Of a DNA stretch of 48,836 nucleotides, positions 5,621 through 48,836 are shown one piece after another. Both the position numbers and the translations under genes were made by a program. The DNA is from Proteromonas lacertae. Lineage: Eukaryota. The DNA is taken from the NCBI GenBank assembly GCA_002245135.1, contig NGBS01000914.1, positions 1 to 48,836 on the forward strand, written 5' to 3'. Within the stretch, counting starts at the first letter, position 1; each line of letters opens with the position of its first letter. The notes under the pieces are model-generated. The model was not told the DNA's origin. It worked only from the letters and a program-made list of their open reading frames with translations, and did no database searches.

Positions 5621-6099
5621 AGGTGCTTGCTGTTGCGCTCCGTTTGTCATAGTTGGCAATTTGTCTACCAGATACTTTTAAAACAAACTAAATGTATATT
5701 CTTATTTGTCTTGATGAAAAATTGTTACTTTTATACTTACTTTGTTGAGGAGAACGGCTGTTCAAATTTTTAACACCCTATTTCTAGTGGTGTTACAGCC
5801 TTTATATTAAATTTCTTCTAGATATAGATAAGTAATTAAGAGTTTCTGAAGCTATCTGTGAATTTCGTTTACTTATGATTAATTCATTTTGACATTAGTT
5901 TTAAAATTGAGGTCCTAACAAAAGTGCATAATATCTGCATTTAGGACCTCCAATTATTTTCATAATAATATGTTTATTTAATGAAAAAATAAACAAAACA
6001 TTTTCACAAAGCAAACCTCAAGTTTGAATGATTATAAATTTTTTATTTTTTAAGCTCCTTATACAATACATGAATAAGAAATATTATTATGTGGTTTTA

Positions 6100-6265
6100 T
6101 GATTAATATACAAAGACAGAGTGGTGCTAGAATTAAAATATAGTGAATATGTTACATGTTATTTAATAGTTACTAGTCATTTTGGATAATTTAATTAAAA
6201 TGTCAAAGAGATAATTGTTTTTGGTTGCTACAATTAAATTGAATATGTAGTTGATGTAATTAACT
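6100..6265 (+). pseudogene. KH-domain fragment inside the inverted-repeat arm (mirror ~7655-7820, -)
   Basis: INIQRQSGARIKI* followed by KEIIVFGCYN*IEYVVDVIN resembles the second half of a KH domain. Confidence 0.45.
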
Positions 6266-6471
6266 AACAATGTTGATGATAAACATTGAGAATAGTAGCA
6301 GAATTAGGAATGATGTTTGAGAAGAAGATTTATTGAAATTTAAATGGTGAATCTGACACACCCACTTGCTTTTAGTTATTTAGCAAAGGAAAGAAAAATA
6401 ACAGTAACAACAGCTCTAGTAATAAACTTAATATCTGGATCTAATAGCCATTAGATTATTATGAAAATATT

Positions 6472-9275: not shown

Positions 9276-9369
9276 ATAGAAAGTATTTAATATTAACAGA
9301 AAATATGAAAATATGTATAGTATAGTATGATAAACATTTTCATTATAGAGTAAAACAACTAAAAATCAA

Positions 9370-13559: not shown

Positions 13560-14288
13560 TTATTTAACATTCAAATATTCTTTTGATAGTTCTTTCTTTT
13601 CTTCTTCTTCTATCCCATCCAGCTCTATTATATCAATTGATGTAAATGTTTCTAAAAATGATTTTAATTCTGATTTATCTATATCTTCTTTTAATGTTAT
13701 TGATAAACTATCTAAATCTTCAAATACTTCTTTGTTTTCTTTCATTAATCTCAATTCTCTTTCATCTAATTCATTTCCTGATAAATTTATATTTGTCAAT
13801 GGTATATTATCTTTTAATCTTTCTATTAACATCATCAATCCTTTTTCACTCATTCCAATTTCTATATACAATACAATACAATACAGAATTTTAAATACTT
13901 GAGATGTTTAATGATGATATAGAATAAATAAATTTATCTAAATATTTACATATTATCTCTATTCCTTCATCTCCAATTTCATTATTATGAATTGAGATAT
14001 ATTCAACATTTTCTGTAAAAGAATCTGTTAATTCTTTTAATCCATTACAACTAATCTTGTTATTGGATATATCAAGATATTTATAATCAATCTGTTTTAT
14101 TAATGAAATATGAGAATCATTCACATTTAAATCTATTTCATTATAAACACACATAATATACTCGAAAAATAATAGTATTTATTGTCTTTTCTTTTCTTTT
14201 TAATACAATAATTCAAATAATATTCACATTCTTCTTTTCTCCATGATTTATTATTCATTTCTATAAATGGATATTCTTCTTTTTCTAA
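13560..14288 (-). pseudogene. 5'-truncated LRR copy (L2), last three exons only
   Basis: 13446-14288 is a direct repeat of 9276-10101. It begins abruptly at LEKEEYPF with no start codon. Confidence 0.8.
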
Positions 14289-14497
14289 ATATGGAATAAT
14301 CTTTTTTAAATATGGAAATGATTTTATACATTTTGAGAATGTATTTATTCATCAAATATTGGTTATAGAGACATTTTCATTAGATTATCAATAAACACAT
14401 AAAAAACACATAGTATATGAAAATTAAAATATAAAGTAAGAAGTGAATATAATACTAATTTATTTATAATATATATATATATTACAATATATATGAT

Positions 14498-17400: not shown

Positions 17401-17900
17401 GTGGTTGAGCTTGAATTATTTCAAGCTTTGCTGCTGGTAATGGACTGTTTGACTGTGGAATATCGAATTTTCTATAATAAATATAATTTTATATATATAC
17501 TGTGGATTGTAATATTGATTTGGAGGTTTTGGTGGAGGAGGATCATCATAATAAGGTTCTGGTGGTTTTACTATTGGTTTTTCATAATAAGGACTTCTTG
17601 AAGGGTTATTATTTTGAATTGGGGCTATTGGAGGTAGAACACCCACTTTCTGCTGTGGAGAATCTCCATGTAATCTATCATAACGATTCTTTTGCATCAT
17701 CCTTTCTTTCTCTTCAATTTGCCTTTTTAAAGCTAAAGGCTAAAAAATAAAAATCATACATCTACTATATGCTTCTTGTAATTCTCTTCTACGACGTTCA
17801 TTCTCTAAACCCTCTTTACCAAACATCAAAGGTGTTTCTGGAGTATTGCCTATTCATAATATATTATTATATGTTTGGATATACCTCTATATTCTGCCAT
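14498..17900 (-). CDS. Large coiled-coil protein with Pro-rich N-terminus and C-terminal WW/WW-like domains
   Basis: Exons join through short GT-AG introns from MAEYR. Long heptad-rich ORFs. Last exon YLFDENTGCYYFFNTETGSTSWDPP..GYTVCRTTEGRLYKRNDRTG. Confidence 0.75.
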
Positions 17901-18033
17901 ATAAATGTGTAACTAAAAAACGAATAACTGCCAATAAGAAACGAGTATATTTTTTATAAATTTTGAATTATTTTTTTCACACACCAATTTCAATTTCAAA
18001 TTATTTCTGGAAGGTTATTCTATAGAATAAATA

Positions 18034-18771
18034 ATGCCACATATTTATACCCCAGATGATATACTTCAATTGAATGCTCCAACTAAAGGTATTCATCTAT
18101 ATTTATCATTGATTTATAGATTATTTATGTTCTCCTGAAGATAATGTCTATGGAATAGAATTTTTAGAGTTTGAGATATACAACGATGAGACAAAAGAAA
18201 AATATTTCCAAATTGGTTGTCCAGACCAAAGATACGATTTGCCAAGTAGATTTTCACGTTGCGCTGATGATCTTAGAAAAATCTATTATGAGTTTCCATT
18301 AGGTGTATTAGAAGCACCAATAATTGCTACTAGGTATATATTATGTGATTATACTCTTTATAGATTAAAGTTCAAAGTTGGACCACAAGAAGTTCGTGAT
18401 TTTAGAATGATAGAAAGACATTATTTTAGAGATACTCTTTTAAAAAGTTATGATTTCCAATTTGTGTTTTGCATTCCAAATTCAGAGAATGAATGGGCTT
18501 CTTATTACAAAGTACCTCCTCTTAACAAAGATTTGCGTATTTTTATTTCTGTTTTATGAATATAGTTGATCAAATCTGTTTACATCCTAATGAGACACAG
18601 AGTGATAGTTTTTATTTTGTTGGTGATGAATTGATAATGCATACAAAAGCAATTTACACTTATTTTAGACCAAATGAAACAATCAGTCGATCTTTACCTG
18701 CTGAAGTTAAAGAATCAGAAAGAATTACAGCAAATGAAAGTAAGTTAGATGCTAGGCATCCTAGAAAGTAA
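18034..18771 (+). CDS. UNC119: UNC119 (PDE-delta family) lipidated-cargo carrier, 4 exons
   Basis: YLCSPEDNVYGIEFLEF, FRMIERHYFRDTLLKSYDF.F.FCIPNS.N, SDSFYFVGDELIMH.KA.Y.Y. Confidence 0.92.
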
Positions 18772-18838
18772 CTAACAACCGTAATTTATTCTTGTTTTTT
18801 TTAACATATAAATTCTTAAAATTACATAACGTATATAT

Positions 18839-19338
18839 TCATTTTTTATAATACTTTATTATAAACACCGAAGAATTCTGATCTAAACACACAAAAGTAT
18901 CTACTGGTGATTTAATGTCGTTAAATATTAATATTCCTTATTTCTACCTTGTCTTATCATAATAGTATGTTTGCCCATATTATATATAATCTCATATTTT
19001 TCTTCTTTCTTTGATTTTATTTCATTTATTACTTTTTCTCTAGCAAATTCACCGCCAGATCCATATAACACAAATTTATCTTTATTTATAGCAATACTAC
19101 AGGAAGAATCATGATTATAAATGAAATGACCAAAATAGTCTTTAATAGTAGAACAGCCAATGTATAATCCATTTTCATTGTGAGATATAAATATAAAATG
19201 ATGAATTCCATTTTCTAATACTATGCCCAAGTAGCAATGAGGTAAAGCAGCAACAGAACTGGATTTATTTAAATTTGTATTTCCATTATCAGTTAATACA
19301 ATATATATGTGCTTATTATATGAAAATTTTATATCCAT
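18839..19338 (-). CDS. SPRY/B30.2-like small protein; C-terminal strands out of frame
   Basis: LENGIHHF..GLYIGCS..IIYNM..HTIMI, then in another frame IFNDIKSPVDTFVCLDQNSSV. Confidence 0.45.
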
Positions 19339-19421
19339 TTTCTAAAATACTATTACAATTTTGATATATATCAAAAAACGCATATACAATATATTATTAT
19401 AATATTACAACTAAAAATCAA

Positions 19422-21949
19422 TTACACTACATTGCTAAACTCATTTAAAAACTCATTTTTCTTTTCTTCTTCTTCTATCCCATCCAACTTTACTATACCA
19501 ATTGATGTAAATGTTTCTAAAAATGATTTTAATTCTGATTTATCTATATCTTCTTTTAATGTTATTGATAATTTTTCTAAATCTTCAAATACTTCTTTGT
19601 TTTCTTTCATTAATCTCAATTCTCTTTCATCTAATTCATTTCCTGATAAATTTATATTTGTCAATGGTATATTATCTTTTAATCTTTCTATTAACATCAT
19701 CAATCCTTTTTCACTCATCACAATTTCTATATACAATACAATACAGAATTTTAAATACTTGAGATGTTTAATGATGAAAACATGAAGAATTTATCTAAAT
19801 ATTTACATATTATCTCTATTCCTTCATCTCCAATTTCATTATTATGAATTGAGATATATACAACATCTTCTGGAAAAGAATCTGTTAATTCTTTTAATCC
19901 ATTACAACTAATCTTGTTATTGGATAAAACAAGATATTTATAATCAATCTGTTTTATTAATGAAATATGAGAATCATTCACATTTAAATCTATTTCATTA
20001 TAAACACACATAATATACTCGAAAAATCATAACATTTTTCATAACTTCTTCTTTTCTTTTTAATACAATAATTCAAATAATATTCACATTCTTCTTTTCT
20101 CCATGTTTTATTATTCATTTTAATAAATGGATATTCTTCTTTTTCTAATGTTTTGGAACAAATTGATTTTAATCCATTCATTCTGATATTATTTCCACTT
20201 AAGTCTATTGAACAACAATAAGAAATTGAATCTATCTTATCAGCTAATAATATCACACTTTCATCATCTATTGAGATATTGGTTAAATCAATTTTATTTA
20301 AATAATTTTCTAATAACATGTCTAAATTGTTTATTAATAGCTTAAATCCAGCATTACCAATTGGATTATCTATTAAACAAATTAAAAACTACCATAAATA
20401 TACTTTGAATATTCAATTCATTAATAATATCACTTTCTTTCATATAATTCATCAAATATTCTATTCCTTCTGAATCTATATTATTATTACTTATATCAAC
20501 TGAATAGAAATTATCTATATCATCATCTTCTTCTTCATTATTTACTTTTAATTCGTTCATAAAGAATCTAGTCAACTCATCACCTTCATTATCATGAAGA
20601 ATTTTCTTTAAACCATCTAACAAATACTTTAATCCAATTGAAGATAATCCCATTTCTATTACAAATAATATCATAATAATAATAATACTTGAACAATTGA
20701 TTTTATTAATAATACCATCTTTTAATAAATGTAAATATGGAGATAATATTTTCATTCCTTCATCTCCTATCTCATTTCCATTCAATTGAAGTTCTTCAAG
20801 ACTTGTAAATGAAGATAAATTGTTAATCAGTATTTCTATACTTTTGTATGTTAGTTTATTATCTAAATAATATAAAAATATCAAATTATACTGTTCAAAT
20901 CTAATCTCCAGATTATTTCGAATTCATCTGATCTTAATGAAATGAATGATTTGAAAAAATCATCATCAATTTCACAATTACTCACATTTAATACATCATC
21001 ATTCATCAATCCAATTAATTCTTTATCAACTAACATTTCCATACTCTCTTTATTAAAATCAAATTTAATCTTTGAAATTGGAAATTTGGAGGATAAGGCT
21101 TTTAATCCTTTTGAATGAATATTCTTGTTTTCTGCAATACATATACTCTCAAGATTTGGATATTTGTATAACGCTTCAGATAATAATATCATTGATTCAT
21201 CATTTAAATTCATGTTAAAAAGATTTAATTCATTTTTGTCGTTGATCAGTAAATGTAAATATGGAAGTAATGATTTGAATCCTTTCACACCAATTCGATT
21301 AGCTATTTCAAAAGAATAAAAAGAAAATATATATACACTGAAGATCAACATATTTCAATTTCATCAATGGAGTTGATTTAACAAATGATTCAATGAAATG
21401 AGAAGTAAAATTACACCATGACAAATCCAATTTTTCTAAATTTGTTAACTGTGAAAAAAATGATCCAAATAAAGAATAATATTGAATTGGAATATCAATA
21501 TGATTATAGTGCTCTTCGAAAACATCATTATTCTTGGGATCCTTTCCAAATTTTAAGTTTGCTGGATTGATAAGTTTCAATATTCTCATGAAGTAATTCA
21601 ATCCTTCTTCACAATAACAAATACAACTTGAATGAATAATTATAACACCACCATAATATGAGTAAATATCAAATATCATTTTATCTAAGTAACACTCAGC
21701 ATCTTCTTTACAGTGGTGATTTATCTGAAATTTCAGCTTAGTTTGAATGGAATCATCATTTTTGTTTAACTTCATCAGCAGCAACTTTGATAATACTTCT
21801 TCATCAGGTTTAGAGTTGTAGCTTTCTACAAGTTGTTCAATTGCTTCTTCATTCTCTTTCGAATCTACTTCTATTCTTCTTCTTTTCTACATCGAATGAA
21901 TAAAAATATATACTACATAAATACTTGAAGGTTTATTAGAATTACTCAT
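19422..21949 (-). CDS. Kinase-less RNI-like LRR protein (copy L3), 8 exons
   Basis: Starts MSNSNKPSSIYV|KRRRIEV. It is homologous to L1 from the post-kinase domain (LVESYN.KP.E.VLS.LL.MK..LKFQI.H.CK) to the end. Confidence 0.8.
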
Positions 21950-22529
21950 AAAATTGTGTTTTGTTTCAAAAATATAGTCGTTATGATTGAGATATTTTTG
22001 TGTTATTCTGAATAAATACAACTAAATTACTAAAATGCTATTCCTGTGAATTGAAAATAATACAGAAATACTTCCATCAATTAAAATTGTAAAGTATTTT
22101 AAACATTTTGAAAATGTATTTGTTTCAGTTGAAGTTAAATCATTCACTAAAACTATAATCATTATATTTCATGCAATCTAAATTAATTTTTTTACATTAT
22201 TCATTCCTCCATCTTTCATTTAAACTAAGAATTCATAATTAAATATCACATTATATATACAATCACAAAAATGCATTCCAATCCCATTTTCATTTTTATC
22301 ATCAATTCTTTCTTCTATTTTCATATTATTTTATACTCAATAAACCAAATACTAATATCATTATTTTATCAAATTCTAAACAACAGAACAACAACAAGAA
22401 GCAGATAAAACAAAAAATGAAATATCAAGTTTTTTGTATTATTTTTTGATTTTTATACATTTACAGATTCTATTTAAGTAGATTAAAATCACTCTAATAA
22501 ACAAAAGCATATGAATATTTTCATTATTT

Positions 22530-24487
22530 TTATGTATCTATACTTCTTGGTAATAAACTGAATATTTCACATCCACTCATTTTCATAAACAACATATTCT
22601 CTTTATTTATTATTTCTATTCCACTTAAATCATTTAAATCACTTAATAAACATAAATAGTTATTATATAAACTTCGCTCTTTTGGACTTGCTATTCCTTT
22701 TCGAACTTTCTCATGCATTAATTTTAAACATTCATAAAATTTAGTATAGATTTCTTCGAATATATTCAACAAATATTCATTCTCATTTATACACTTTTTC
22801 ATTCTTTCATAATCTTTACTATTCAAATATTCTTTTACAAATCGATTATTTTCTACTATTTCTAACAGATTCTCACTTTTTAAATCGAAATTCAATGACT
22901 AATATATAATATATATATATAATAATATACACTTATAAAACTACACACTTCATTCTTCTCACTTAACCATTTCAACACATTATTCAACAAACTATCATTC
23001 ATTTTGTCTTTCAACATGATTCGTAATATGTTGTTTATTAAACCAATATTCATTTGGATATTTAAATCTAACCATACTTGACAATCATTGTTTATTGTAT
23101 TTTCTCTAGTTAAATCAAATAAATCTATAACAAAATAATAATAATATATAAATATATAAATACTTGAAAAAGAAAATGAACTTTTTATCTTCAATTCAAA
23201 TTCTTTCATTATTTCATTCAATTTTGGAAACTCTTTATATTCCATATATTTATTCATATTGTGATTCATTATTATATAAACTCTCAACATATCATTCTTA
23301 TCACCACTTTCTCCATTATTCTCATTTATTATTATATATTTCACAAATTCATCTATATTCTTCAAACTGTATAATAAATAATTATCACATATGTTTTGTA
23401 AAGCAGCTACACACTTCTGTTGTCTTGTTTTATTTGTTCCTTCTCTATATCCAAAGGATAATTTCATTATCATTATATCTTCTTTTATTTCTTTGGTTAT
23501 ATTTAAATGCTTTACAATATTATTATAATTCTTTTCATTGTTATTTTTTAGTTTCAAATTCATCTCAAATCCACTCTTCAATAATACTCCTATTTCATCT
23601 TTTATATGGATTTTACACATGCTATTATTATTTAAACTTATTCCTTTTAATTTATTATATTTTATTACATTTGGAATTATTTCATGTAAGTAGTTTAATC
23701 CATTTATATATTTATTCCAATATTTGGTTATTTCATTTCCTACTTTAGATATTGCACTTATTAAATACCATTCACTTTCTTTCTTTTTATTTCCTCCTTT
23801 TATATTCATTAACTCAGATTTGGTTGAATTAATTCCTGGAATATTCATTGTAACTATGTTATTAAATAATAATATATACATCTTCTTTTATTATTTGGAT
23901 TATTGTTATTGTTACTGTCTTTTAGAGACTTTATTCTGGATAATTCAGCATTTGAATGAATTGTTTCATTATCTATTTTTATATCTAAATACAATGTTAA
24001 CTTCATTAAATCTCGATTATTGTTATTATAAACACTTGTTATATATTCTGTAAATTCTTTTATATTTATTGGAATTTTCAATTCTATTCATTAGTATTAG
24101 ATTATATAATATACCTTCATTTTCACTACGGCTTATCACTTCATTTTCATTTTCACTCACACTATCTTCTTTTTCTTCCTCTTCATCTAATTTTATTAGT
24201 GTCACACTCTTCTTTATTGCTATTAGAATATCTTCATATGATTCTTCATTTAAAACTCCTTTATTAAACAAATCAAAGTATTTGAATATCTCATTCACTG
24301 TTTTATTTCCTAATTCACTCAATTTATTGTTCTTAAAGTATTCTAACACTTCTAACTCTTCTCTTTCTTCAGTATTTTCATTTATTGCATTCTTTAGTTT
24401 TTCTGCATCAATTCCTATTTCTTTCAATGAGCCTTCAATTCTCTGAAGTTTTTTTAAGGTAGAATTCTTTTGATCAATCAAACTCAT
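22530..24487 (-). CDS. Hypothetical helical protein, multi-exon
   Basis: Overlapping ORFs join through short GT-AG introns. An intact mirror copy lies at 38567-40520. No recognisable motif. Confidence 0.65.
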
Positions 24488-24623
24488 AAAAAAACGAAAA
24501 ACGAAACGAATATATTATTTGAATTATCAAACATTCTCTTCAAACTTATTGAAATATTTCAACCATTATTGCTATTAAAAGCAAAAGAAACAACAATATA
24601 AAAGTAATTACTGATAAAATATC

Positions 24624-32319: not shown

Positions 32320-34067
<1,748 letters not shown>

Positions 34068-34123: not shown

Positions 34124-35618
34124 TTAATCCATTGAAGCTTCTACACCTCTTAATATTAATCCCCAACCAATTAAACGGAAATGATTACCAATTTTTCTAC
34201 TTAAAGCAACTTTTTCACCTACTTCAGCACAAGACTATTAAAATAATAATAAAAAAAATGTAAATATACTGGAATAGCTAATGATAATTTAGCTACATCA
34301 CCTTCCTGACTTTTCTTGCCTTTCTTAGCAGTAGTAATGGATATAACACTCACAGAAGTACTAACAGAACCGATATTTACATTCAAAATTTCCTTAGATT
34401 TCAATCCTTCCACTTTCGCCTGTTTACCGTGTGCTTTTACTCCTAGTAATCTTTTCAATAGATAATAACTAATTTCTATTTCATTATATAGTGGAGGTAA
34501 ACTTCCTTTATGACCTAAGTTTCTTCCTACTAAGTAATCTGATCTAGCCAAGTATGGATCAATATTTGTACCAACACCTATTAAACCACCAGGTATAGCA
34601 ATATCTAATGAATTCTGTTCAGCAAATAAAGATACGATAGTTGTGTATATAGGAGATATTTTATTTTTTCCACTTGAATCTGTCCTTACAATTCCAGGTC
34701 GAATTTCTATTTCATCTCCTACTCGTAATACACCTTTCATTAAACTACCACCAGCTACTCCACCTTTCAAATCATCTATAGAGATACCTGGACGATTTAC
34801 ATCAAAACTACGGATTATTATTAATCGACCAGCACTTGTAAAATCACGAGGAGGAATTGGAATTGATTCAACAATATATTGACATACTACATCAATATTA
34901 TACTTTAGCACGGCGCTTATTGGAATTATTGGAGCACTGGCTGCTTCAGTACCATCTACAAATCGACGAATTGCATTATATTGTTCCATTGCAGCATCTT
35001 TTCGAACTAAATCGATTTTGTTTTGTAAAATTAATATGTGTTTTAATTTCATTATTTCTACAGCAGCTAAATGCTCGGATGTTTGTGGTTGTGGACAAGT
35101 TTCATTTGCTGCTATTAACAGTAAAGCAGCATCCATTACAGCTGCTCCATTCAACATTGTTGCCATATATACATCATGTCCAGGACAATCAACAAAGGAA
35201 ACATGTCTCTGCAAACGCATTGTACCTCCACATCCTTCTCTTGTGCATTTTGGATCTGTATTCATTGAACTGCCAAAAGATTTGTAACAAGAGGGTCTAT
35301 TTATCATATTTATTCATTTATACGGTGGACATTCTGGATTATCACATTTGAATATTTTAGCATTAGCATATCCTAACTTTATAGTGATATTTCTTTCTAA
35401 TTCTTTTCTGAAACGAATAGTCTATTTAAATATTATCGAATTTAATTTGTACTTGAACTCCAGTAATAGCTTTTACTACAGTTGACTTACCGTGAGCAAC
35501 ATGACCAATTGTTCCTGTTACACTAAAAATAAATTCATATACCAATGTTTATTGTTGCCTGCTTTGCCATTATCTCAGGAGTTAATGGACTGAGTTCTTT
35601 AATAGGTATATCTGCCAT
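34124..35618 (-). CDS. EIF2S3: Translation initiation factor eIF2 gamma, paralog A (4 introns)
   Basis: [69 protein letters not shown]. Confidence 0.96.
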
Positions 35619-35747
35619 GAAATGTTATGTTTGGCTTGATATAAAAATGAAGTGTAATTTAATGTAATTTACATAACATAAAAAACGATATAAATTTTAA
35701 AACATTCTAGAATATTGTAGTTTTTTTAACTTATATCTTCTGCCGAG

Positions 35748-36035
35748 ATGTCTCATATCCTTTGATATTAAACTCTTAAAAAGTTTACCTTAATTTATTT
35801 AAGTGGCAATAGAAGAGAAGTAGACAGAGCTAGAGCTGCAGCAAGAGCTGAAAGAACACATCCAAAAGAAGGAAGAGGTGGTTCAGTATATGAAAGAAAT
35901 GAATCGTATTATTTATTGATATATATTTTTAGAGACGCAGCAGCTTTAAGAGCCAAGATTGAAAAGAAGAAGGCTATGGAAGCTGCTGGTGGTGCTTCTG
36001 ATGATGGTAAAGGAAAGGGAAAGGGCAAAAAGTAG
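35748..36035 (+). CDS. SERF: SERF/4F5-family small protein (3 exons; absent from ORF track)
   Basis: Spliced MSRGNRREVDRARAAARAE..ERNESDAAALRAKIEKKKA.. matches the MxRGNQRE..R / DA..MR.K signature. Introns at 35755-35802 and 35906-35932. Confidence 0.85.
35755..35802 (+). other. U12-type (minor spliceosome) intron, 48 nt, AT-AA termini
   Basis: 5' end ATATCCTTT and branch-site-like TTACCTTAAT at 35785-35794. Removal yields ATG TCT C|GT GGC AAT (MSRGN). Confidence 0.85.
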
Positions 36036-36096
36036 ATAATACTTTTAAATTAATATATAGCTTTTCTTATTTTTTAAATTTCATTCGATTTTATTG

Positions 36097-36884
36097 TTAT
36101 TTTAATTTTCTGGTGTTGCTAAATCCACATAATTCCATCTGTCGAGTCACTACGTTTAATGATATATTTACTAAACCTGAACACTTCACTCTTGTCGATT
36201 CTCTTCCTCTGCTATCAGCTACAAAATTAGCATTATAAAACTATTTCAATTACAAAACTTATATATATTATATACCTCTGTTCTTTCTCCTGTTAACCAT
36301 GCAATAAACTCTCTTAATTTAGAAGACGAGATTGGAGTATATAAATAAACATCCTGATGATATAATCCTGGTTGAGTAGGAATTAACATTGATCCATAAC
36401 CTAATACTATATCATTTCCTCTTGAATCCAGTGCATAAACCTAACACTTAGTAAAAATCATTATTTTAAATATACGGAGAGAATGATTCTAGGCCAACCG
36501 AATGGATTTGTTGATCGAAATGTTATATCTATAGGGAAATTCCATACAAATCTACTATCTTCACTACTTGTTGTTCTTCTTGAATATTGGCTTATTCCAT
36601 CTTCTAAACCCTATTTATAGTGCAATATAATGCTAATCATATGTCATACTGTCAAAACTTGCCAATCTTGACCATATACATAACTGTATTTACAATTAAT
36701 ACAATTTGAATCGTATAGCTAATTTTACATTTTAATAAATTCAAATATATACTTTCTTACCATAATTGACTTGTCCATTCACAATTACTTGAAAATGTGA
36801 ACGAATTCCATCTCTATATATTCGTTAATTGTTAAAAATATACTGCTCCACACCAAGCTGTGGTTTAGCTGCTAATGTTGCCAT
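36097..36884 (-). CDS. B9D1: B9 domain protein 1 (MKS/transition-zone module), 6 exons; absent from ORF track
   Basis: [71 protein letters not shown]. Confidence 0.92.
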
Positions 36885-36971
36885 TATAAGTTATTAAAAA
36901 ACAATTTAAAATTCAAAATAATTTGATTCTCTTTAAAAGGCTTGAGTTTTTTTAGATTTTATAATTGATTT

Positions 36972-38410
36972 ATGTCATCGATGCATGATTTAAGTGAACT
37001 AAATCCACTTTCACCAGATATTATGGCTAAACAAGCAACTATTAATATTGGTATAATAGAAATAGATTTCATTTATAGGAACAATCGGCCATGTATCTCA
37101 CGGTAAGTCAACTGTAGTAAAAGCTATTACTGGAGTTCAAGTACAAATTAAATTCGATAATATTTAAATAGACTATTCGTTTCAGAAAAGAATTAGAAAG
37201 AAATATCACTATAAAGTTAGGATATGCTAATGCTAAAATATTCAAATGTGATAATCCAGAATGTCCACCGTATAAATGAATAAATATGATAAATAGACCC
37301 TCTTGTTACAAATCTTTTGGCAGTTCAATGAATACAGATCCAAAATGCACAAGAGAAGGATGTGGAGGTACAATGCGTTTGCAGAGACATGTTTCCTTTG
37401 TTGATTGTCCCGGACACGAGATATATATGGCAACAATGTTGAATGGAGCAGCTGTAATGGATGCTGCTTTACTGTTAATAGCAGCAAATGAAACTTGTCC
37501 ACAACCACAAACATCCGAGCATTTAGCTGCTGTAGAAATAATGAAATTAAAACACATATTAATTTTACAAAACAAAATCGATTTAGTTCGAAAAGATGCT
37601 GCAATGGAACAATATAATGCAATTCGTCGATTTGTAGATGGTACTGAAGCAGCCAGTGCTCCAATAATTCCAATAAGCGCCGTGCTAAAGTATAATATTG
37701 ATGTAGTATGTCAATATATTGTTGAATCAATTCCAATTCCTCCTCGTGATTTTACAAGTGCTGGTCGATTAATAATAATCCGTAGTTTTGATGTAAATCG
37801 TCCAGGTATCTCTATAGATGATTTGAAAGGTGGAGTAGCTGGTGGTAGTTTAATGAAAGGTGTATTACGAGTAGGAGATGAAATAGAAATTCGACCTGGA
37901 AGAGTTGAAATTAATAACAAAGGAGGATTTACCATTATTCCAATTTATACAAAAATAATATCATTATTTGCTGAACAGAATTCATTAGATATTGCTATAC
38001 CTGGTGGTTTAATAGGTGTTGGTACAAATATTGATCCAAGTCTGTCAATTAATGATAGATTGGTTGGGAAAAACTTAGGAATAGTTGGAACATTGCCAAA
38101 AATATATACTGAAATAGAAATCAGTTATTATTTGCTGAGGAGAGTGTTAGGTGTGAAAGATAGTGAAAATAATTCAAAAAAGAACAAAGTTCAAGGTTTC
38201 AAAAATAGAGAATTTCTAACATTGAATATTGGTTGTGTAACTAGTACTGCTACAATTATAACCTTTGATAAATCAAAAGTTAGAATAAAACTACAAAAAC
38301 CTGTGTGCGCTGAAATTGGTGAAAAAGTAGCTATTAATCGTTATTTAAACAAGCATTGGAGATTAATTGGTTGGGGTTTGTTATTACGAGGTAATGAAGT
38401 GGTTATTTAG
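36972..38410 (+). CDS. EIF2S3: Translation initiation factor eIF2 gamma, paralog B (3 introns)
   Basis: Same family motifs as paralog A but with GHVSHGKS and DCPGHEI. It ends [13 protein letters not shown]. Confidence 0.96.
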
Positions 38411-38566
38411 TTAATTAAGGATAATAATTTAATTGTATTAATTGTAACAATGTTATATTGTTGTTTCTTTTGCTTTTAATAGCAATAATGGTTGAAATAT
38501 TTCAATAAGTTTGAAGAGAATGTTTGATAATTCAAATAATATATTCGTTTCGTTTTTCGTTTTTTT

Positions 38567-40520
38567 ATGAGTTTGACTGATCAAAAGAATTCTACCTTAA
38601 AAAAACTTCAGAGAATTGAAGGCTCATTGAAAGAAATAGGAATTGATGCAGAAAAACTAAAGAATGCAATAAATGAAAATACTGAAGAAAGAGAAGAGTT
38701 AGAAGTGTTAGAATACTTTAAGAACAATAAATTGAGTGAATTAGGAAATAAAACAGTGAATGAGATATTCAAATACTTTGATTTGTTTAATAAAGGAGTT
38801 TTAAATGAAGAATCATATGAAGATATTCTAATAGCAATAAAGAAGAGTGTGACACTAATAAAATTAGATGAAGAGGAAGAAAAAGAAGATAGTGTGAGTG
38901 AAAATGAAAATGAAGTGATAAGCCGTAGTGAAAATGAAGGTATATTATATAATCTAATACTAATGAATAGAATTGAAATTTCCAATAAATATAAAAGAAT
39001 TTACAGAATATATAACAAGTGTTTATAATAACAATAATCGAGATTTAATGAAGTTAACATTGTATTTAGATATAAAAATAGATAATGAAACAATTCATTC
39101 AAATGCTGAATCATCCAGAATAAAGTCTCTAAAAGACAGTAACAATAACAATAATCCAAATAATAAAAGAAGATGTATATATTATTATTTAATAACATAG
39201 TTACAATGAATATTCCAGGAATTAATTCAACCAAATCTGAGTTAATGAATATAAAAGGAGGAAATAAAAAGAAAGAAAGTGAATGGTATTTAATAAGTGC
39301 AATATCTAAAGTAGGAAATGAAATAACCAAATATTGGAATAAATATATAAATGGATTAAACTACTTACATGAAATAATTCCAAATGTAATAAAATATAAT
39401 AAATTAAAAGGAATAAGTTTAAATAATAATAACATGTGTAAAATCCATATAAAAGATGAAATAGGAGTATTATTGAAGAGTGGATTTGAGATGAATTTGA
39501 AACTAAAAAATAACAATGAAAAGAATTATAACAATATTGTAAAGCATTTAAATATAACCAAAGAAATAAAAGAAGATATAATGATAATGAAATTATCCTT
39601 TGGATATAGAGAAGGAACAAATAAAACAAGACAACAGAAGTGTGTAGCTGCTTTACAAAACATATGTGATAATTATTTATTATACAGTTTGAAGAATATA
39701 GATGAATTTGTGAAATATATAATAATAAATGAGAATAATGGAGAAAGTGGTGATAAGAATGATATGTTGAGAGTTTATATAATAATGAATCATAATATGA
39801 ATGAATATATGGAATATAAAGAGTTTCCAAAATTGAATGAAATAATGAAAGAATTTGAATTGAAGATAAAAAGTTCATTTTCTTTTTCAAGTATTTATAT
39901 ATTTATATATTATTATTATTTTGTTATAGATTTATTTGATTTAACTAGAGAAAATACAATAAACAATGATTGTCAAGTATGGTTAGATTTAAATATCCAA
40001 ATGAATATTGGTTTAATAAACAACATATTACGAATCATGTTGAAAGACAAAATGAATGATAGTTTGTTGAATAATGTGTTGAAATGGTTAAGTGAGAAGA
40101 ATGAAGTGTGTAGTTTTATAAGTGTATATTATTATATATATTATATATTAGTCATTGAATTTCGATTTAAAAAGTGAGAATCTGTTAGAAATAGTAGAAA
40201 ATAATCGATTTGTAAAAGAATATTTGAATAGTAAAGATTATGAAAGAATGAAAAAGTGTATAAATGAGAATGAATATTTGTTGAATATATTCGAAGAAAT
40301 CTATACTAAATTTTATGAATGTTTAAAATTAATGCATGAGAAAGTTCGAAAAGGAATAGCAAGTCCAAAAGAGCGAAGTTTATATAATAACTATTTATGT
40401 TTATTAAGTGATTTAAATGATTTAAGTGGAATAGAAATAATAAATAAAGAGAATATGTTGTTTATGAAAATGAGTGGATGTGAAATATTCAGTTTATTAC
40501 CAAGAAGTATAGATACATAA
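38567..40520 (+). CDS. Hypothetical helical protein, duplicate of 22530-24487
   Basis: Near-identical mirror copy with only a few substitutions. Confidence 0.65.
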
Positions 40521-41036
40521 AAATAATGAAAATATTCATATGCTTTTGTTTATTAGAGTGATTTTAATCTACTTAAATAGAATCTGTAAATGTATAAAAA
40601 TCAAAAAATAATACAAAAAACTTGATATTTCATTTTTTGTTTTATCTGCTTCTTGTTGTTGTTCTGTTGTTTAGAATTTGATAAAAAAATGACATTAGTA
40701 TTTGGTTTATTGAGTATAAAATAATATGAAAATAGAAGAAAGAATTGATTATAAAAATGAAATAGAGAAAATGGGATTGGAATGAATAATGTAAAAAAAA
40801 TAATTTAGATTGCATGAAATATAATGATTATAGTTTTAGTGAATGATTTAACTTCAACTGAAACAAATACATTTTCAAAATGTTTAAAATACTTTCCAAT
40901 TTTAATTGATGGAACTATTTCTGTATTATTTTCAATTCACAGGAATAGCATTTTAGTAATTTAGTTGTATTTATTCAGAATAACACAAAAATATCTCAAT
41001 CATAACGACTATATTTTTGAAACAAAACACAATTTT

Positions 41037-43552
41037 ATGAGTAATTCTAATAAACCTTCAAGTATTTATGCAGTATATATTTTTATTAATTCGATGTAGA
41101 AAAGAAGAAGAATAGAAGTAGATTCGAAAGAGAATGAAGAAGCAATTGAACAACTTGTAGAAAGCTACAACTCTAAACCTGATGAAGAAGTATTATCAAA
41201 GTTGCTGATGATGAAGTTAAACAAAAATGATGATTCCATTCAAACTAAGCTGAAATTTCAGATAAATCACCACTGTAAAGAAGATGCTGAGTGTTACTTA
41301 GATAAAATGATATTTGATATTTACTCATATTATGGTGGTGTTATAATTATTCATTCAAGTTGTATTTGTTATTGTGAAGAAGGATTGAATTACTTCATGA
41401 GAATATTGAAACTTATTAATCCAGCAAACTTAAAATTTGGAAATGATCCCAAGAATAATGATGTTTTCGAAGAGCACTATAATCATATTGATATTCCAAT
41501 TCAATATTATTCTTTATTTGGATCATTTTTTTCACAGTTAACAAATTTAGAAAAATTGGATTTGTCATGGTGTAATTTTACTTCTCATTTCATTGAATCA
41601 TTTGTTAAATCAATTCCATTGATGAAATTGAAATATGTTGATCTTCAGTGTATATATTTACTTTTTATTCTTTTGAAATAGCTAATCGAATTGGTGTGAA
41701 AGGATTCAAATCATTACTTCCCTATTTACATTTACTGATCAACGACAAAAATGAATTAAATCTTTTTAACATGAATTTAAATGATGAATCAATGATATTA
41801 TTATCTGAAGAGTTATACAAATATCCAAATCCTGAGAGTATATGTATTGCAGAAAACAAGAATATTCATTCAAAAGGATTAAAAGCCTTATCCTCCAAAT
41901 TTCCAATTTCAAAGATTAAATTTGATTTTAATAAAGAGAGTATGGAAATGTTAGTTGATAAAGAATTAATTGGATTGATGAATGATGATGTATTAAATGT
42001 GAGTAATTGTGAAATTGATGATGATTTTTTCAAATCATTCATTTCATTAAGATCAGATGAATTCGAAATAATCTGGAGGTTAGATTTGAACAGTATAATT
42101 TGATATTTTTATATTATTTAGATAATAAACTAACATACAAAAGTATAGAAATACTGATTAACAATTTATCTTCATTTACAAGTCTTGAAGAACTTCAATT
42201 GAATGGAAATGAGATAGGAGATGAAGGAATGAAAATATTATCTCCACATTTACATTTATTAAAAGATGGTATTATTAATAAAATCAATTGTTCAAGTATT
42301 ATTATTATTATGATATTATTTGTAATAGAAATGGGATTATCTTCAATTGGATTAAAGTATTTGTTAGATGGTTTAAAGAAAATTCCTCATGATAATGAAG
42401 GTGATGAGTTGACTAGATTCTTTATGAACGAATTAAAAGTAAATAATGAAGAAGAAGATGATGAGATAGATAATTTCTATTCAGTTGATATAAGTAATAA
42501 CAATATAGATTCAGAAGGAATAGAATATTTGATGAATTATGTGAAAGAAAATGATAATATTAATAGATTGAATATTCAAAGTATATTTATGGTAATTTTT
42601 AATTTGTTTAATAGATAATCCAATTGGTAATGCTGGATTTAAGCTATTAATAAACAATTTGAATGTTGTCAATAAGTGGGATAGAATGAATTTGAGTAAT
42701 ATCTCAATAGATGATGAAAGTGTGATATTATTAGCTGATAAGATAGATTCAATTTCTAATTGCAACACAATAAACTTAAATGGAAATAATATCAGAATGA
42801 ATGGATTAAAATCAATTTGTTCCAAAACATTAGAAAAAGAAGAATATCCATTTATAGAAATGAAATGTTCATCATGGAGAAAAGAAGAATGTGAATATTA
42901 TTTGAATTATTGTATTAAAAAGAAAAGAGAAGACAATAAATACTATTATTTTTCGAGTATATTATGTGTGTTTATAATGAAATAGATTTAAATGTGAATG
43001 ATTCTCATATTTCATTAATAAAACAGATTGATTATGAAGAACTTGTTTTATCCAATAACAAGATTAGTTGTAATGGATTGAAAGAATTAACAGATTCTTT
43101 TCCAGAAAATGTTAAATATATTTCAATTCATAATAATGAAATTGGAGATGAAGGAATAGAGATAATATGTAAATATTTAGATAAATTCTTCATGTTTTCA
43201 TCATTAAACATCTCAAGTATTTAAAATTCTGTATTGTATTGTATATAGAAATTGTGATGAGTGAAAAAGGATTGATGATGTTAATAGAAAGATTAAAAGA
43301 TAATATACCATTGACAAATATAAATTTATCAGGAAATGAATTAGATGAAAGAGAATTGAGATTAATGAAAGAAAACAAAGAAGTATTTGAAGATTTAGAT
43401 AGTTTATCAATAACATTAAAAGAAGATATAGATAAATCAGAATTAAAATCATTTTTAGAAACATTTACATCAATTGGTATAGTAAAGTTGGATGGAGTAT
43501 CAGAAGAAGAAAAAAAAAAGAGTTTTTAAATGAGTTTAGCAATGTAGTGTAA
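41037..43552 (+). CDS. Kinase-less RNI-like LRR protein (copy L4)
   Basis: Mirror of L3 with variant patches in the 3' half. A poly-A frameshift at ~43510-43520 may be a sequence error. Confidence 0.8.
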
Positions 43553-43636
43553 TTGATTTTTAGTTGTAATATTATAATAATATATTGTATATGCGTTTTT
43601 TTGATATATATCAAAATTGTAACAGCATTTTAGAAA

Positions 43637-44136
43637 ATGGATATAAAATTTTCATATAATAAGCACATATATATTGTATTAACTGATAATGGAAATACAA
43701 TTTTAAATAAATCCAGTTCTGTTGCTACTTTACCTCATTGCCACTTGGGCATAGTATTAGAAAATGGAATTCATCATTTTATATTTATATCTCACAATGA
43801 AAATGGATTATACATTGGCTGTTCTACTATTAAAGACTATTTTGGTCATTTCATTTATAATCATGATTCTTCCTGTAGTATTGCTATAAATAAAGATAAA
43901 TTTGTGTTATATGGATCTGGCGGTGAATTTGCTAGAGAAAAAGTAATAAATGAAATAAAATCAAAGAAAGAAGAGAAATATGAGATTATATATAATATGG
44001 GCAAACATACTATTATGATAAGACAAGGTAGAAATAAGGAATATTAATATTTAACGACATTAAATCACCAGTAGATCCTTTTGTGTGTTTAGATCAGAAT
44101 TCTTCAGTGTCTATAATAAAGTATTATAAAGAATGA
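43637..44136 (+). CDS. SPRY/B30.2-like small protein, duplicate
   Basis: Mirror of 18839-19338 with the same frame break. Downstream frame IFNDIKSPVDPFVCL. Confidence 0.45.
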
Positions 44137-44203
44137 ATATATACGTTATGTAATTTTAAGAATTTATATGTTAAAAAAAACAAGAATAAATTACGGTTGT
44201 TAG

Positions 44204-44941
44204 TTACTTTCTAGGATGTCTAGCATCTAACTTACTTTCATTTGCTGTAATTCTTTCTGATTCTTTAACTTCAGCAGGTAAAGATCGACTGATTGTTTCA
44301 TTTGGTCTAAAATAAGTGTAAATTGCTTTTGTATGCATTATCAATTCATCACCAACAAAATAAAAACTATCACTCTGTGTCTCATTAGGATGTAAACAGA
44401 TTTGATCAACTATATTCATAAAACAGAAATAAAAATACGCAAATCTTTGTTAAGAGGAGGTACTTTGTAATAAGAAGCCCATTCATTCTCTGAATTTGGA
44501 ATGCAAAACACAAATTGGAAATCATAACTTTTTAAAAGAGTATCTCTAAAATAATGTCTTTCTATCATTCTAAAATCACGAACTTCTTGTGGTCCAACTT
44601 TGAACTTTAATCTATAAAGAGTATAATCACATAATATATACCTAGTAGCAATTATTGGTGCTTCTAATACACCTAATGGAAACTCATAATAGATTTTTCT
44701 AAGATCATCAGCGCAACGTGAAAATCTACTTGGCAAATCGTATCTTTGGTCTGGACAACCAATTTGGAAATATTTTTCTTTTGTCTCATCGTTGTATATC
44801 TCAAACTCTAAAAATTCTATTCCATAGACATTATCTTCAGGAGAACATAAATAATCTATAAATCAATGATAAATATAGATGAATACCTTTAGTTGGAGCA
44901 TTCAATTGAAGTATATCATCTGGGGTATAAATATGTGGCAT
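44204..44941 (-). CDS. UNC119: UNC119 duplicate
   Basis: ORF-track peptides are identical to the left copy. Confidence 0.92.
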
Positions 44942-45074
44942 TATTTATTCTATAGAATAACCTTCCAGAAATAATTTGAAATTGAAATTGGTGTGTGAAA
45001 AAAATAATTCAAAATTTATAAAAAATATACTCGTTTCTTATTGGCAGTTTTTCGTTTTTTAGTTACACATTTAT

Positions 45075-48000
45075 ATGGCAGAATATAGAGGTATATCCAA
45101 ACATATAATAATATATTATGAATAGGCAATACTCCAGAAACACCTTTGATGTTTGGTAAAGAGGGTTTAGAGAATGAACGTCGTAGAAGAGAATTACAAG
45201 AAGCATATAGTAGATGTATGATTTTTATTTTTTAGCCTTTAGCTTTAAAAAGGCAAATTGAAGAGAAAGAAAGGATGATGCAAAAGAATCGTTATGATAG
45301 ATTACATGGAGATTCTCCACAGCAGAAAGTAGGTGTTCTACCTCCAATAGCCCCAATTCAAAATAATAACCCTTCAAGAAGTCCTTATTATGAAAAACCA
45401 GAAATCCAACCACCAGAACCTTATTATGATGATCCTCCTCCACCAAAACCTCCAAATCAATATTATAATCCACAGTATATATATAAAATTATATTTATTA
45501 TAGAAAATTCGATATTCCACAGTCAAACAGTCCATTACCAGCAGCAAAGCTTGAAATAGTTCAAGCTCGACCACCTGTGCCGCAATATTACCCGCCTGCA
45601 TCTCAACAAAATGACAAATCATTCATTTTGTTAAAGAGTCAGCTGGATCAATATAATCAAAATCAAAGAGAGAATAGTAACTTAATAAATGAGCTAAAAG
45701 GCAGATTATACCAATTAGAGAGTGAATTGAAACATGAAAAAGAGTGGCGAAAGAATTATTCGAAATATAATGGTGATATAAAAGATGTAATAAGTGGAAT
45801 TCAAAATAAAACTGAACACTTTGAAATGGCTCGATCCAATGATGTAGAACGATTAATTAGTCGAATCAATTTAGTGGAAAAATCAGTGTATGATGTAAAA
45901 ATGAGTTTTGAGAATATGAATCAAAATTATATAACACGAATGAATGAAATTGAAATAAAGTTAAAGATATTTCCATTAATACAAATGATTTAAATAACAA
46001 ACTCTTATTGGTTAATAATAATATTGATAGATTGAATATAGATTTAAATGGTGTAAAGAATAATATAATTGATTTAGAAAGTAAAGTAAGAGAAGCAGTA
46101 AATGGTATAGTAAATGATCAAATGGAACAGAAAGTAGTTATTGATGCTACAATACAGAATCAAAGTGTTGGAGGAATTCCTTTGAATAATATAAATCCAT
46201 TAATTGATGGTAGTAATGGTGGTGCTATGGATTTTAATAAATGGAGTGGTGTTATACAGAAATTAAAATTGTTAGAAAGTGGATTGAGTGATCAAAAGAA
46301 AAGTAGAAAATTATTAGATGATTCTATTCGAAGAGTATATATATATATATAATATTATATTATTATTTTTAATGTTTGTTAATAGATTGATAATAAATAT
46401 TCTGATGTATTATCCACAATTAAAGGTCAAAATGACATACTTCAAACATACGAAAATCATGTTCAAGATACAATAGATAAAGGATTTGGTGGATATGATA
46501 TAAAGCTAAATAACTTAGCAAAGAACTTGGAAATACGATTAAATAAACACAGTCAAGATATAGAAGACTTTAAGCAAGAAATATTAGAGATTGAAACAAA
46601 ATTAGAGAATTATATAGTCACAGAAATGAAGAATATAAATAATAAAGATAATGAAATAACCAATCAATTAGTGAGTCTTTCTAGTAGGTTACAAGAGATT
46701 AGTAATATGAAAATGGAAGGAATTGATAGTGGAAATAGTAAAAATAGTGCAATCTATAAAGAGTTGAGTGATTTGAATAAAGAATTGAATGATGTAAAAG
46801 ATGAAATTGAAGAGATGAAAAATAGTGATTTAGCTTCAGCTAGAAGTAATAATAATAATATCAATGATGAAGTGTCTAATAAATTAATAAGAAGAATTCA
46901 AAATGATTTAGACAATCATAATTGTAGAATAAAAGCAATAGAAAGTGATTATATAACTAGACCACAATTAGAATTAAGTGGTTATAGCTCAACTAATAAT
47001 AATGGTGGTTTAGCTAATGATGAAGTTTGAAATTAGAAGCAATAGATAATTTAAGAAATGAAGTTGTAGCACAAGCTGTTATTAATGATTTGTACAATCA
47101 AACTAAACTTTGAATTATATGAAAAAACATGTGACAGATGTAATAAATAAGAATTTGAGAAGAGTGAGTGATTTAGATAAGAAGATAAAGAATTGTCAAC
47201 AAAGCATTGATTCATTAAGATATGAATGTGATGAAAGACATCGAAATATTGAAAATGAGATAATAAACGAAGCTGAAATCAACAAGAACAGTATTGAAAG
47301 AAATGAAGAAAAGATGGAGAAAATGCACAATGAAATGAGTCAATTTAGTGAAGAAAATGCCAAAACACGAGACAAATAATTAATAACAAGATCGATAATC
47401 AAAATGAAAGATTAGAGAAAGTATTGAATGATATTCGTGAAAAATAATGAATTGAAAGATTATGTAGAAAAGAAGATAAATGATATTTATGAATTAATTG
47501 AAAGTAAACAAATAGCCAATGAAGCGATGGAAAGAGCTTTAGTAGAAGAAAACTATAACAAATTGAAAGATGAAACATTCCACTATTATAGTGACTATCA
47601 CAATAAATTGGAAATACAAAGAATGATGTAAAATTGAAGTTGGAACAATATAAGACAGTAACAGATGAAAGTATATATATATATATATAATTTTATATAA
47701 TTGAAAATAGAAATGAAGCGTATAGAAGATAATAATAACCGAAGACTTAGTGACTGGAAAATGATATTAATGAGTTGAAAGTAACAGTAACAAATACAAA
47801 GAAGGAGGTAAATCAACAATTAGATAATAATAAGAAAGATATGAATTATATAAACAAATCAATGGATAGCTTGAGTTTAACTACAACAATGGATAATTTG
47901 AAATGGCAAATAGAATTTGATAATTTATACAACTTCGTAGATCATGCGAATATGAGTGAGATTCGAACGAATTATCATTCATTACAATCTTACTTAGATA

Positions 48001-48459
48001 CATCGATCAAATCATTTGTGAATAGATTCAATAAATTAGAAAGTGAATTAGATAATCGTTTGATCGCTATAAAAGATTATGACAAAACAAATATATGAGC
48101 GAGATTTATTAATCGAAAGAAATAGTAGTAACCCTAAACCATCTAAAATGACAATAGTAACTGGAATGATGCTTTAAGACCTCCAACTGCTGATTCAACT
48201 AATATATATATTATTATTAATGATTTTAATATTTGTTTAGGAAGCAATCTATCAATACTTATTTGATGAGAATACAGGTTGTTATTACTTCTTTAACACT
48301 GAAACAGGAAGTACGAGTTGGGATCCTCCTGAAGATCTGGATATAATATATAGAGAAGGTCAAAAATTAGATGGTGGTTATACTGTTTGTAGAACAACAG
48401 AAGGTCGTTTGTATAAGAGAAATGATAGAACTGGAAGTGTTGAAGCTTTGTATAGTTAA
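45075..48459 (+). pseudogene. Coiled-coil/WW gene duplicate with many frameshifts (pseudogene or unpolished sequence)
   Basis: Small indels relative to the intact left copy near 45955, 47022, 47105, 47125, 47360, 47612, 47756, 48077 and 48163, and loss of a splice donor near 48203. Confidence 0.6.
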
Positions 48460-48650
48460 ATCATATATATTGTAATATATATATATATATTATAAATAAA
48501 TTAGTATTATATTCACTTCTTACTTTTATTTTAATTTTCATATACTATGTGTTTTTTATGTGTTTATTGATAATCTAATGAAAATGTCTCTATAACCAAT
48601 ATTGATGAATAAATACATTCTCAAAATGTATAAAATCATTTCCATATTTA

Positions 48651-48836
48651 AAAAAAAGAAGAATATCCATTTATTAAATGAATAATCATCATGGAGAAAA
48701 GAAGAATGTGAATATTATTTGAATTATTGTATTAAAAAGAAAAGAAGAAGAAAAAATTATATTTTTCGAGTATATTATGTGTGTTTATAATGAAATAGAT
48801 TTAAATGTGAATGATTCTCATATTTCATTAATAAAA
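48651..48836 (+). pseudogene. 5'-truncated LRR fragment (L5), mirror of L2, cut by window end
   Basis: KEEYPF..WRKEECEYYLNYCIKKKR, followed by an intron and LNVNDSHISLIK. Confidence 0.75.

Follow-up and report, generated by a model that had tools for sequence, protein, structure and literature searches.

How can two neighbouring genes be base-identical through most of their catalytic domain and keep a small cluster of differences directly beside the catalytic residue? The question is raised by a pair of genes for the gamma subunit of translation initiation factor eIF2 (eIF2-gamma), located at positions 34124-38410 of contig NGBS01000914.1 from Proteromonas lacertae (assembly GCA_002245135.1; the whole analysed stretch of 48,836 nucleotides (nt), forward strand, is referred to below as the window). 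The genes are arranged head-to-head and both are complete, with copy A on the minus strand and copy B on the plus strand (Table 1). Our analysis indicates that A and B are old paralogs, and that gene conversion acting between these inverted genes most likely homogenised their central 0.94 kb. An 11-bp island in switch II, a codon in the P-loop and a hairpin in domain II nevertheless differ between them. The explanation that we favour, with a probability of roughly 0.5, is recurrent conversion between the inverted arms combined with selection that removes conversion products in which the island has been erased.

A repeat search of the window identified inverted arms at 34692-35516 and 37077-37901 (825 nt, 99% identity, 1560 nt apart), together with a second inverted pair at 34555-34654 and 37939-38038. 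Global alignment of the two genes revealed 801 matching bases out of 805 between 37097-37901 and 35496-34692, introns 2 and 3 included. This result was in agreement, at every coordinate, with a first-pass annotation prepared by a model from the sequence alone, which had described 805 bp of near-identity interrupted by four changes within 11 bp. The identity of each region was also counted in B coordinates, and these counts reproduced the tracts, the island and the diverged flanks. Across the three identical tracts a total of 869 bases were shared, 58 of them located in the two introns that the first tract spans (B 37141-37171, 31 nt, and 37270-37296, 27 nt). The 75-bp tract that the annotation had placed downstream was identical throughout, and the divergence it had noted elsewhere was evident in exon 1 (51/76), in the 3' part of the genes (222/363) and in a fourth intron present only in A. 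The edges of all tracts were abrupt, with no gradient of intermediate divergence.

Silent and replacement proportions were determined from Nei-Gojobori counts. Outside the tracts the proportion of silent sites that differ (pS) was 0.74 in exon 1, 0.77 in the hairpin and 0.65 in the 3' part. By our own calculation, unrelated third positions are expected to differ at a proportion of about 0.63 in this DNA, where the GC content of third codon positions (GC3) is near 0.15; the silent sites of the flanks are therefore fully saturated, and the age of the paralogs follows from this. Inside the three tracts there were no silent differences over approximately 183 synonymous sites. Constraint on the protein was ruled out as the cause of this identity because two whole introns are identical as well. 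The six codons immediately upstream of the first tract (37079-37096) carried three silent differences and one replacement difference, so that the protein is conserved there and the silent sites are not; together with exon 1, this short segment shows how the G domain looks where conversion has not acted. Identity at neutral sites, both intronic and silent, is thus bounded by old divergence, which is the pattern by which gene conversion is recognised.

Phylogenetic analysis of 87 unconverted C-terminal columns placed B outside a group formed by A and two relatives from protein searches, P0005 and P0006 (support 92/79). Protein trees agreed only weakly with concerted evolution, in which the tract groups by species and the flanks by paralogue. 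A neighbouring 10.5-kb inverted duplication contained mismatches in most 500-column windows, compared with zero differences in the three tracts, and this comparison points to recent, probably repeated conversion. The first-pass annotation had proposed old paralogs under ongoing conversion. Its claim of age is upheld by the saturated silent sites and the tree, and its claim of conversion by the introns and the silent sites of the tracts, but ongoing conversion is not separated by these data from one or a few recent events.

The four differences within the 805 bp are located at 37411, 37417, 37420 and 37421, where B has C, C, G and A and copy A has T, T, T and G. The codons read CCC GGA CAC GAG ATA in B and CCT GGA CAT GAT GTA in A. 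Comparison by codon revealed silent differences in the Pro codon (CCT/CCC) and the His codon (CAT/CAC), an Asp/Glu difference (GAT/GAG) and a Val/Ile difference (GTA/ATA), with A given first in each case. Switch II therefore reads DCPGHDV in A and DCPGHEI in B, with two of the four changes synonymous, as the annotation had stated, and the two altered residues are those directly after the catalytic His. By codon position, the first three changes affect third bases, and the fourth is a conservative replacement at a first base. When four sites were placed at random in 805 bp by simulation, they clustered into 11 bp with a probability of about 1e-5. The pS of the island (2/3.5) was similar to that of the old flanks. 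Taken together, the clustering of four changes in 11 bp, their codon-respecting pattern and a silent divergence like that of the flanks argue that the island is old sequence and not a burst of fresh point mutations.

Two further features of the island were recorded. The B codons CCC, CAC and GAG (37409-37420) are all of the GC-ending type that is rare here, and at each of the three third-position differences copy A has A or T and copy B has G or C. A search for the 20-mer containing the island found no other copy in the window at up to three mismatches. Folding of the island as single-stranded DNA was unremarkable in both copies (z scores of -0.47 and -0.38), with no hairpin or quasi-palindrome that could have served as a template. 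The P-loop codon is TCT (Ser) in B, at 37096-37098, and GCT (Ala) in A, at 35497-35495; the first base of this codon is the final mismatch before the identical tract. The earlier observation that the tract starts right after a P-loop difference is thus positionally true, but it carries little weight, since four of the preceding 18 bases differ anyway.

We also examined how unusual these residues are among homologues. The survey comprised the fetched homologues whose motifs could be read, which are best-scoring matches and not an even sample of eukaryotes. The residue after PGH was Asp in all 184 other eIF2-gamma sequences showing switch II, and the P-loop read GHVAHGK[ST], with Ala, in all 111 others showing that motif, consistent with the eukaryotic background given in the first-pass annotation. 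At the second residue after the catalytic His (n = 184), Ile was found in 173 sequences, Val in 5, Thr in 3, Leu in 2 and Ala in 1. On these counts the P-loop Ser of B and its Glu after the catalytic His are unique among the eIF2-gamma sequences examined. The Val/Ile difference, by comparison, is mild and part of natural variation, and the derived state at that position is the Val of A. With respect to the eukaryotic signature residues, A has both the P-loop Ala and the switch-I Asn, and B keeps the Asn (ERNITIK) and has Ser in place of Ala. A separate peculiarity is shared by the whole lineage: the residue following the island is Tyr in A (35169-35167), B (37424-37426), P0005 and P0006, compared with Leu in 181 of the 184 other homologues (PGHD-x-Leu), the three that lack Leu being the two relatives (Tyr) and P0315 (Phe).

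Protein searches were performed with the whole of exon 4 at near lengths and, against shorter proteins, with residues 196-370 and residues 1-200. These searches identified only P0005 and P0006 as relatives within the lineage, both of them A-type. The lineage is long-branched, and in the eIF2-gamma tree it was found on a very long branch with no secure placement. P0005 is identical to A at 311 of 332 residues, reads DCPGHDVY and runs into the same 3' intron; the more distant P0006 is approximately 71-76% identical and reads DCPGHDIY. These two readings make Val the derived state in A and date it no later than the divergence from the source of P0005; the Ile of B is ancestral and its Glu derived. 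The best identities to other proteins were 55% in the search with residues 196-370 and 76% in the search with residues 1-200, and none of these proteins had PGHE. Copy A and P0005 share a 10-residue Lys-rich insert in domain III (34270-34330), just before the extra 35-nt intron. The insert is absent from P0006, which has the intron, and B has neither. A degenerate DNA pattern for switch II, run over metagenome contigs, matched a single locus (L001) and no B-type sequence. This locus was considered as a close relative and rejected; it encodes an intronless eIF2-gamma that reads DCPGHDVY and is only 55% identical to B.

Both genes encode recognisable eIF2-gamma proteins. Analysis of exon 4 of each copy with Pfam revealed GTP_EFTU, GTP_EFTU_D2 and eIF2_C, corresponding to the G domain, domain II and the C-terminal domain; the eIF2_C match of A was partial, exon 5 having been left out of the query. 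When exon 4 of B was compared with solved chains, the strongest matches were to human eIF2-gamma (E = 1.9e-148) and yeast eIF2-gamma (6.7e-145), with archaeal aIF2-gamma at about 1e-98 and weaker and EF-Tu at about 1e-15. The introns of the two genes are 27-35 nt long with GT-AG ends; introns this short are known in ciliates, microsporidia, dicyemids and myxobolid myxozoans, according to PMC13644364. The window is gene-dense, uses the standard code and has a GC content of 25.5%.

The reading frame of B is open over 450 codons, and its GT-AG splice sites are intact, including those of the unconverted intron 1. In the unconverted 3' part the pairwise ratio of replacement to silent divergence (dN/dS) was at most 0.27, which makes it unlikely that one of the two lineages was free of constraint, because the value is too low for that. 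Among 45 well-conserved sites at which A and B differ, the eukaryotic consensus was kept by A at 18, by B at 12 and by neither at 15; the sites where B keeps the consensus and A has changed include the C-terminal HWRLIGWG. End-branch lengths in the unconverted region were 2.13 for B and 1.71 for P0006. These data show that both genes are under purifying selection and indicate that B is functional and not decaying.

The possible meaning of the B residues can be judged against the archaeal protein. In Sulfolobus aIF2-gamma, as described in PMC4357699, Asp19 of the GKT loop and Gly44 of switch I bind a second Mg2+ that occupies the site of the RasGAP arginine finger. The same source reports that hydrolysis becomes about tenfold slower with either the D19A or the H97A mutation, that the motif reads His97-Glu98-Val99, with His97 kept in an inactive position by the backbone NH groups of Glu98 and Val99, and that eukaryotes 'systematically' have Ala and Asn at the Asp19 and Gly44 positions. 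Given these roles, the changes in B lie at the two sites bordering on the gamma-phosphate and the catalytic His. The first-pass annotation had equated the Ala site with the cation-binding Asp position and had given PGHE as the archaeal motif, and both statements match this source. The archaeal analogy for B fails. The Glu after the catalytic His is indeed shared with the archaeal protein, which works without a GTPase-activating protein (GAP), and the P-loop position equivalent to Asp19 is changed in B. However, the archaeal pair Asp19/Gly44 corresponds to Ser/Asn in B and Ala/Asn in A, so that B is of the eukaryotic type, and the ligands of the second Mg2+ are not restored because Ser and Asn stand in place of Asp and Gly. 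The candidate identity of B as an archaeal-type, GAP-independent a/eIF2-gamma was therefore rejected.

In the account that we favour, conversion would recur between the 825-nt inverted arms across the 1.56 kb that separates them. Products in which the island was erased, or in which the P-loop Ser of B was joined to the switch II of A, would be less fit and would be removed, and silent differences tightly linked to the selected site would hitch-hike. That selection protects the island, as the first-pass annotation had proposed, is plausible, and the island, the P-loop Ser/Ala codon and the domain-II hairpin are likely to be kept different by selection against mixed genes. B would then represent a second eIF2-gamma isoform built on the G-domain scaffold of A, with its own domain-II hairpin and domain III. 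Its catalytic centre may be retuned, with the catalytic His gated differently and the pocket for the arginine finger of eIF5 changed; the altered GAP/GEF dependence or stage-specific initiation suggested for B in the first-pass annotation is speculative. The selected difference could be either a separate function or co-adaptation of the Glu of B with other parts peculiar to that copy, namely its P-loop Ser, domain II and domain III. A more specific proposal goes further and is, in our judgement, unlikely. It regards B as a naturally evolved second eIF2-gamma whose retuned catalytic centre, with Ser at the arginine-finger/second-metal position and Glu beside the catalytic His, would affect phosphate release or GTP hydrolysis, whether intrinsic or stimulated by eIF5, and through them the stringency of start-codon choice for some initiation events; conversion and selection would then have reduced the determinants to a few residues.

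Several observations weigh against recurrent conversion with selection on the island. The same mosaic could be produced by a single discontinuous event. The island state of B was observed only once, and the Asp-Val of A recurs in P0005; within the island the Asp-to-Glu change is the only one unique to B, since Val/Ile varies naturally. No B orthologue was found in the protein searches with exon 4, residues 196-370 and residues 1-200. A younger duplication, with A, B and P0005 in one clade, was not rejected by the approximately unbiased (AU) test (P = 0.34). No footprint of GC-biased conversion was detected, GC3 being about 0.15 in tracts and flanks alike. P0005 passes unbroken from the tract into A-specific sequence, and its source may have no identical second copy, a point that depends on the assembly of its contig. 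The hairpin, which is well conserved in most eukaryotes, shows only random-level identity between A and B, and its 20 residues hold 14 of the 21 positions at which A and P0005 are not identical, compared with 7 in the other 312; it may be unconstrained, and a heterology barrier, not selection, could explain its escape from conversion. Finally, both the exact identity of the copies and the assignment of the island to B depend solely on the assembly.

One alternative is that one or a few recent conversion events, copying A into B or B into A, underwent discontinuous repair, by long heteroduplex or template switching, and left the 11-bp patch and the 62-bp hairpin by chance, the island being a neutral relic. 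We consider this possible but doubtful. The silent divergence of the island equals that of the old flanks, as expected of a relic, and the abrupt tract edges without intermediate divergence, the absence of a GC3 excess in the tract, the failure of the protein searches to find a B orthologue that would show persistence and the ordinary nature of the Val/Ile variation are all consistent with it. However, G domains that beforehand differed at most silent sites would have been a poor substrate for recombination, and a single event would have had to switch several times to give three converted pieces and two retained patches. Moreover, the patch that was retained holds the sole Asp-to-Glu change among 185 sequences (B counted) and lies beside the catalytic His, and not at any of the other approximately 260 codons of the tract. 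The concern over the assembly leads to another explanation, in which further differences were collapsed by assembly or polishing, or the island is an allelic or strain polymorphism assigned to one copy. Inverted repeats as similar as this one (805 bp) tend to be homogenised by short-read assemblers and polishers, many more near-identical inverted repeats occur in the window, and three rare GC-ending codons in a row are odd for this genome. The saturated flanks and the two intact frames nevertheless indicate that the duplication is real; the copies show no homopolymer-length differences over the 869 identical bases, and the island changes respect codon structure. Collapse would in any case require copies that were already nearly identical, so the conversion itself would survive, and we judge an artefact to be improbable.

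Two other accounts concern the origin of the island and the fate of B. If constraint on B had relaxed and the duplicate were decaying, with its G domain repeatedly patched by conversion from A and its Ser and Glu slightly harmful and not yet erased, changes at two positions that are invariant elsewhere, a long end branch and the lack of an orthologue in the protein searches would all be expected. This is very improbable in view of the low dN/dS in the unconverted 3' part, the open frame and intact splice sites, and the 12 conserved sites, those of the HWRLIGWG segment included, at which B keeps a consensus that A has changed; the branch of the relative P0006 is, in addition, similarly long. 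The least probable of the accounts considered is a one-step origin of the island, either through a templated multi-nucleotide mutation or through micro-conversion in which a third, diverged eIF2-gamma copy elsewhere in the genome was the donor. The clustering of four changes in 11 bp is compatible with a single event, and the shift from A/T in A to G/C in B at all three third positions is what a GC-richer template would give. Against this, blastn and tblastn found no third eIF2-gamma copy within the 48.8-kb window, the island 20-mer had no similar sequence there and no templating structure was present locally, and a random cluster would rarely consist of three silent or conservative third-position changes and one further conservative change. 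Recurrent conversion with selection on the island thus remains the explanation that we prefer.

The surroundings of the pair were also analysed. The start codons of A and B are separated by 1.35 kb, an interval that holds two small genes, one for a B9-domain protein and one for a weakly SERF-like protein; a gene for RIO2 kinase follows copy A. The B9-domain gene between the eIF2-gamma genes is of the ciliary transition-zone type, so the organism is ciliated or flagellated. The inverted segmental duplication referred to above is 10.5 kb long, occupies 14095-24601 and 38453-48836 and carries duplicated GMP-PDE-delta, leucine-rich repeat (LRR) and ATG17-like genes. Its arms are 97.3% identical, with 143 mismatches, 46 gap openings and at most 830 bp in a row without a difference. 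The right arm starts 43 bp past the stop codon of B and reaches the end of the window, so that the eIF2-gamma pair sits in its 13.85-kb spacer. Further inverted pairs were found at 937-2413 and 3917-5402 (98.3% identity) and at 5631-6445 and 7474-8288 (98.8%). Repeats of one family, about 1.1 kb long and 93-95% identical, occur in both orientations at 9355-10438, 13593-14288, 19407-20497 and 42487-43567. The region is a duplication hot spot. Elsewhere, a T/C-rich low-complexity repeat on the plus strand (32435-32810, periods of 9-12 nt) lies inside a minus-strand open reading frame with a CCHC zinc knuckle. Rfam identified no RNA family in the window.

Table 1. Features of the eIF2-gamma pair, regions of the A-B alignment and neighbouring genes (positions in the window; alignment regions in B coordinates)
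Feature	Position	Strand	Details
eIF2-gamma copy A	34124-35618	-	five exons, 457 codons; gene model and translation
Copy A exons	35618-35543, 35514-35453, 35421-35324, 35296-34270, 34234-34124	-	gene model
Copy A introns		-	28, 31, 27, 35 nt; P-loop GHVAHGKS, switch [10 protein letters not shown]
Intron 4 of A	34235-34269	-	35 nt; not in B; proteins of the relatives P0005 and P0006 read through it at the same place
eIF2-gamma copy B	36972-38410	+	four exons, 450 codons; gene model
Copy B exons	36972-37050, 37079-37140, 37172-37269, 37297-38410	+	gene model
Copy B introns		+	28, 31, 27 nt; P-loop GHVSHGKS, switch [10 protein letters not shown]
Exon 1, A vs B			51/76 identical; diverged flank
Intron 1, A vs B			diverged
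18 nt upstream of tract	37079-37096	+	14/18 identical
Identical tract 1	37097-37410 (A partner 35496-35183)	+	314/314; switch I, zinc-knuckle region, introns 2 and 3
Divergence island	37411-37421 (A partner 35182-35172)	+	7/11 identical
Identical tract 2	37422-37901 (A partner 35171-34692)	+	480/480; remaining G domain and start of domain II
Unconverted domain-II hairpin	37902-37963 (A partner 34691-34630)	+	31/62; pS 0.77, proportion of replacement sites differing (pN) 0.40
Identical tract 3	37964-38038 (A partner 34629-34555)	+	75/75; 0 differences at about 18 silent sites
Diverged end of domain II and domain III of B	38039-38410 (A partner 34554-34124)	+	222/363; dN 0.41, dS at least 1.5
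B9-domain ciliary protein gene	36097-36884	-	several short introns; Pfam B9-C2 on two exons, E 5e-13 and 3e-11
Small Lys/Arg-rich protein gene, weakly SERF-like N-terminus	35775-36035	+	Pfam SERF-like_N E 0.008, below curated cut-off; start codon approximate

The locus is valuable as a natural variation on the eIF2 catalytic centre with sharply defined limits. The means by which eIF5 sets off GTP hydrolysis and phosphate release on eIF2 are still debated on the basis of mutants. If selection holds the island, A and B would form a natural minimal-difference pair, in which the G-domain scaffold is base-identical and only three residues of the catalytic centre differ, the one in the P-loop and the two that follow the catalytic His. 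The pair would then identify the exact swaps to make, and would provide a clean case, at base-pair resolution, of conversion and selection in an essential gene. If, instead, the island was left over by chance or arose in assembly, B would be an ordinary converted duplicate. A search of one literature collection found no paper joining eIF2 gamma, paralogs and gene conversion; among the matches listed for eIF2gamma, paralogs and duplication, all were off the subject by title.

The locus can be compared with several known systems. X- and Y-linked EIF2S3 genes of animals place two eIF2 gamma-subunit genes in one genome, as A and B do here; the other eIF2-gamma sequences showing the motifs all keep GHVAHGK[ST] and PGHD, from which B differs. 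On the human Y chromosome, arm-to-arm gene conversion keeps the inverted copies of large palindromes near-identical. The present pair resembles these palindromes in its inverted copies, short spacer and intrachromosomal conversion, and the window likewise contains the 10.5-kb inverted pair and two smaller ones. It differs from them in that only 0.94 kb has been homogenised, inside older and saturated paralogues, so that the arms are mosaic and not uniform. Interlocus conversion with islands of divergence that resist it is reportedly the subject of theory by Teshima and Innan. An example is provided by the GOT1 paralogues of the copepod Tigriopus, for which the abstract of PMC3728101 states that islands resisting conversion can mark regions under selection for new functions. 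In both, a homogenised core that includes silent or non-coding sites lies next to old diverged flanks and contains a short patch at functional residues with linked silent differences. Compared with such classic cases, in which the island persists in other species or populations, the gene here encodes a core GTPase of translation initiation and the island abuts its catalytic His. Conversion with retained islands is an established pattern, and this locus is a new example of a known process.

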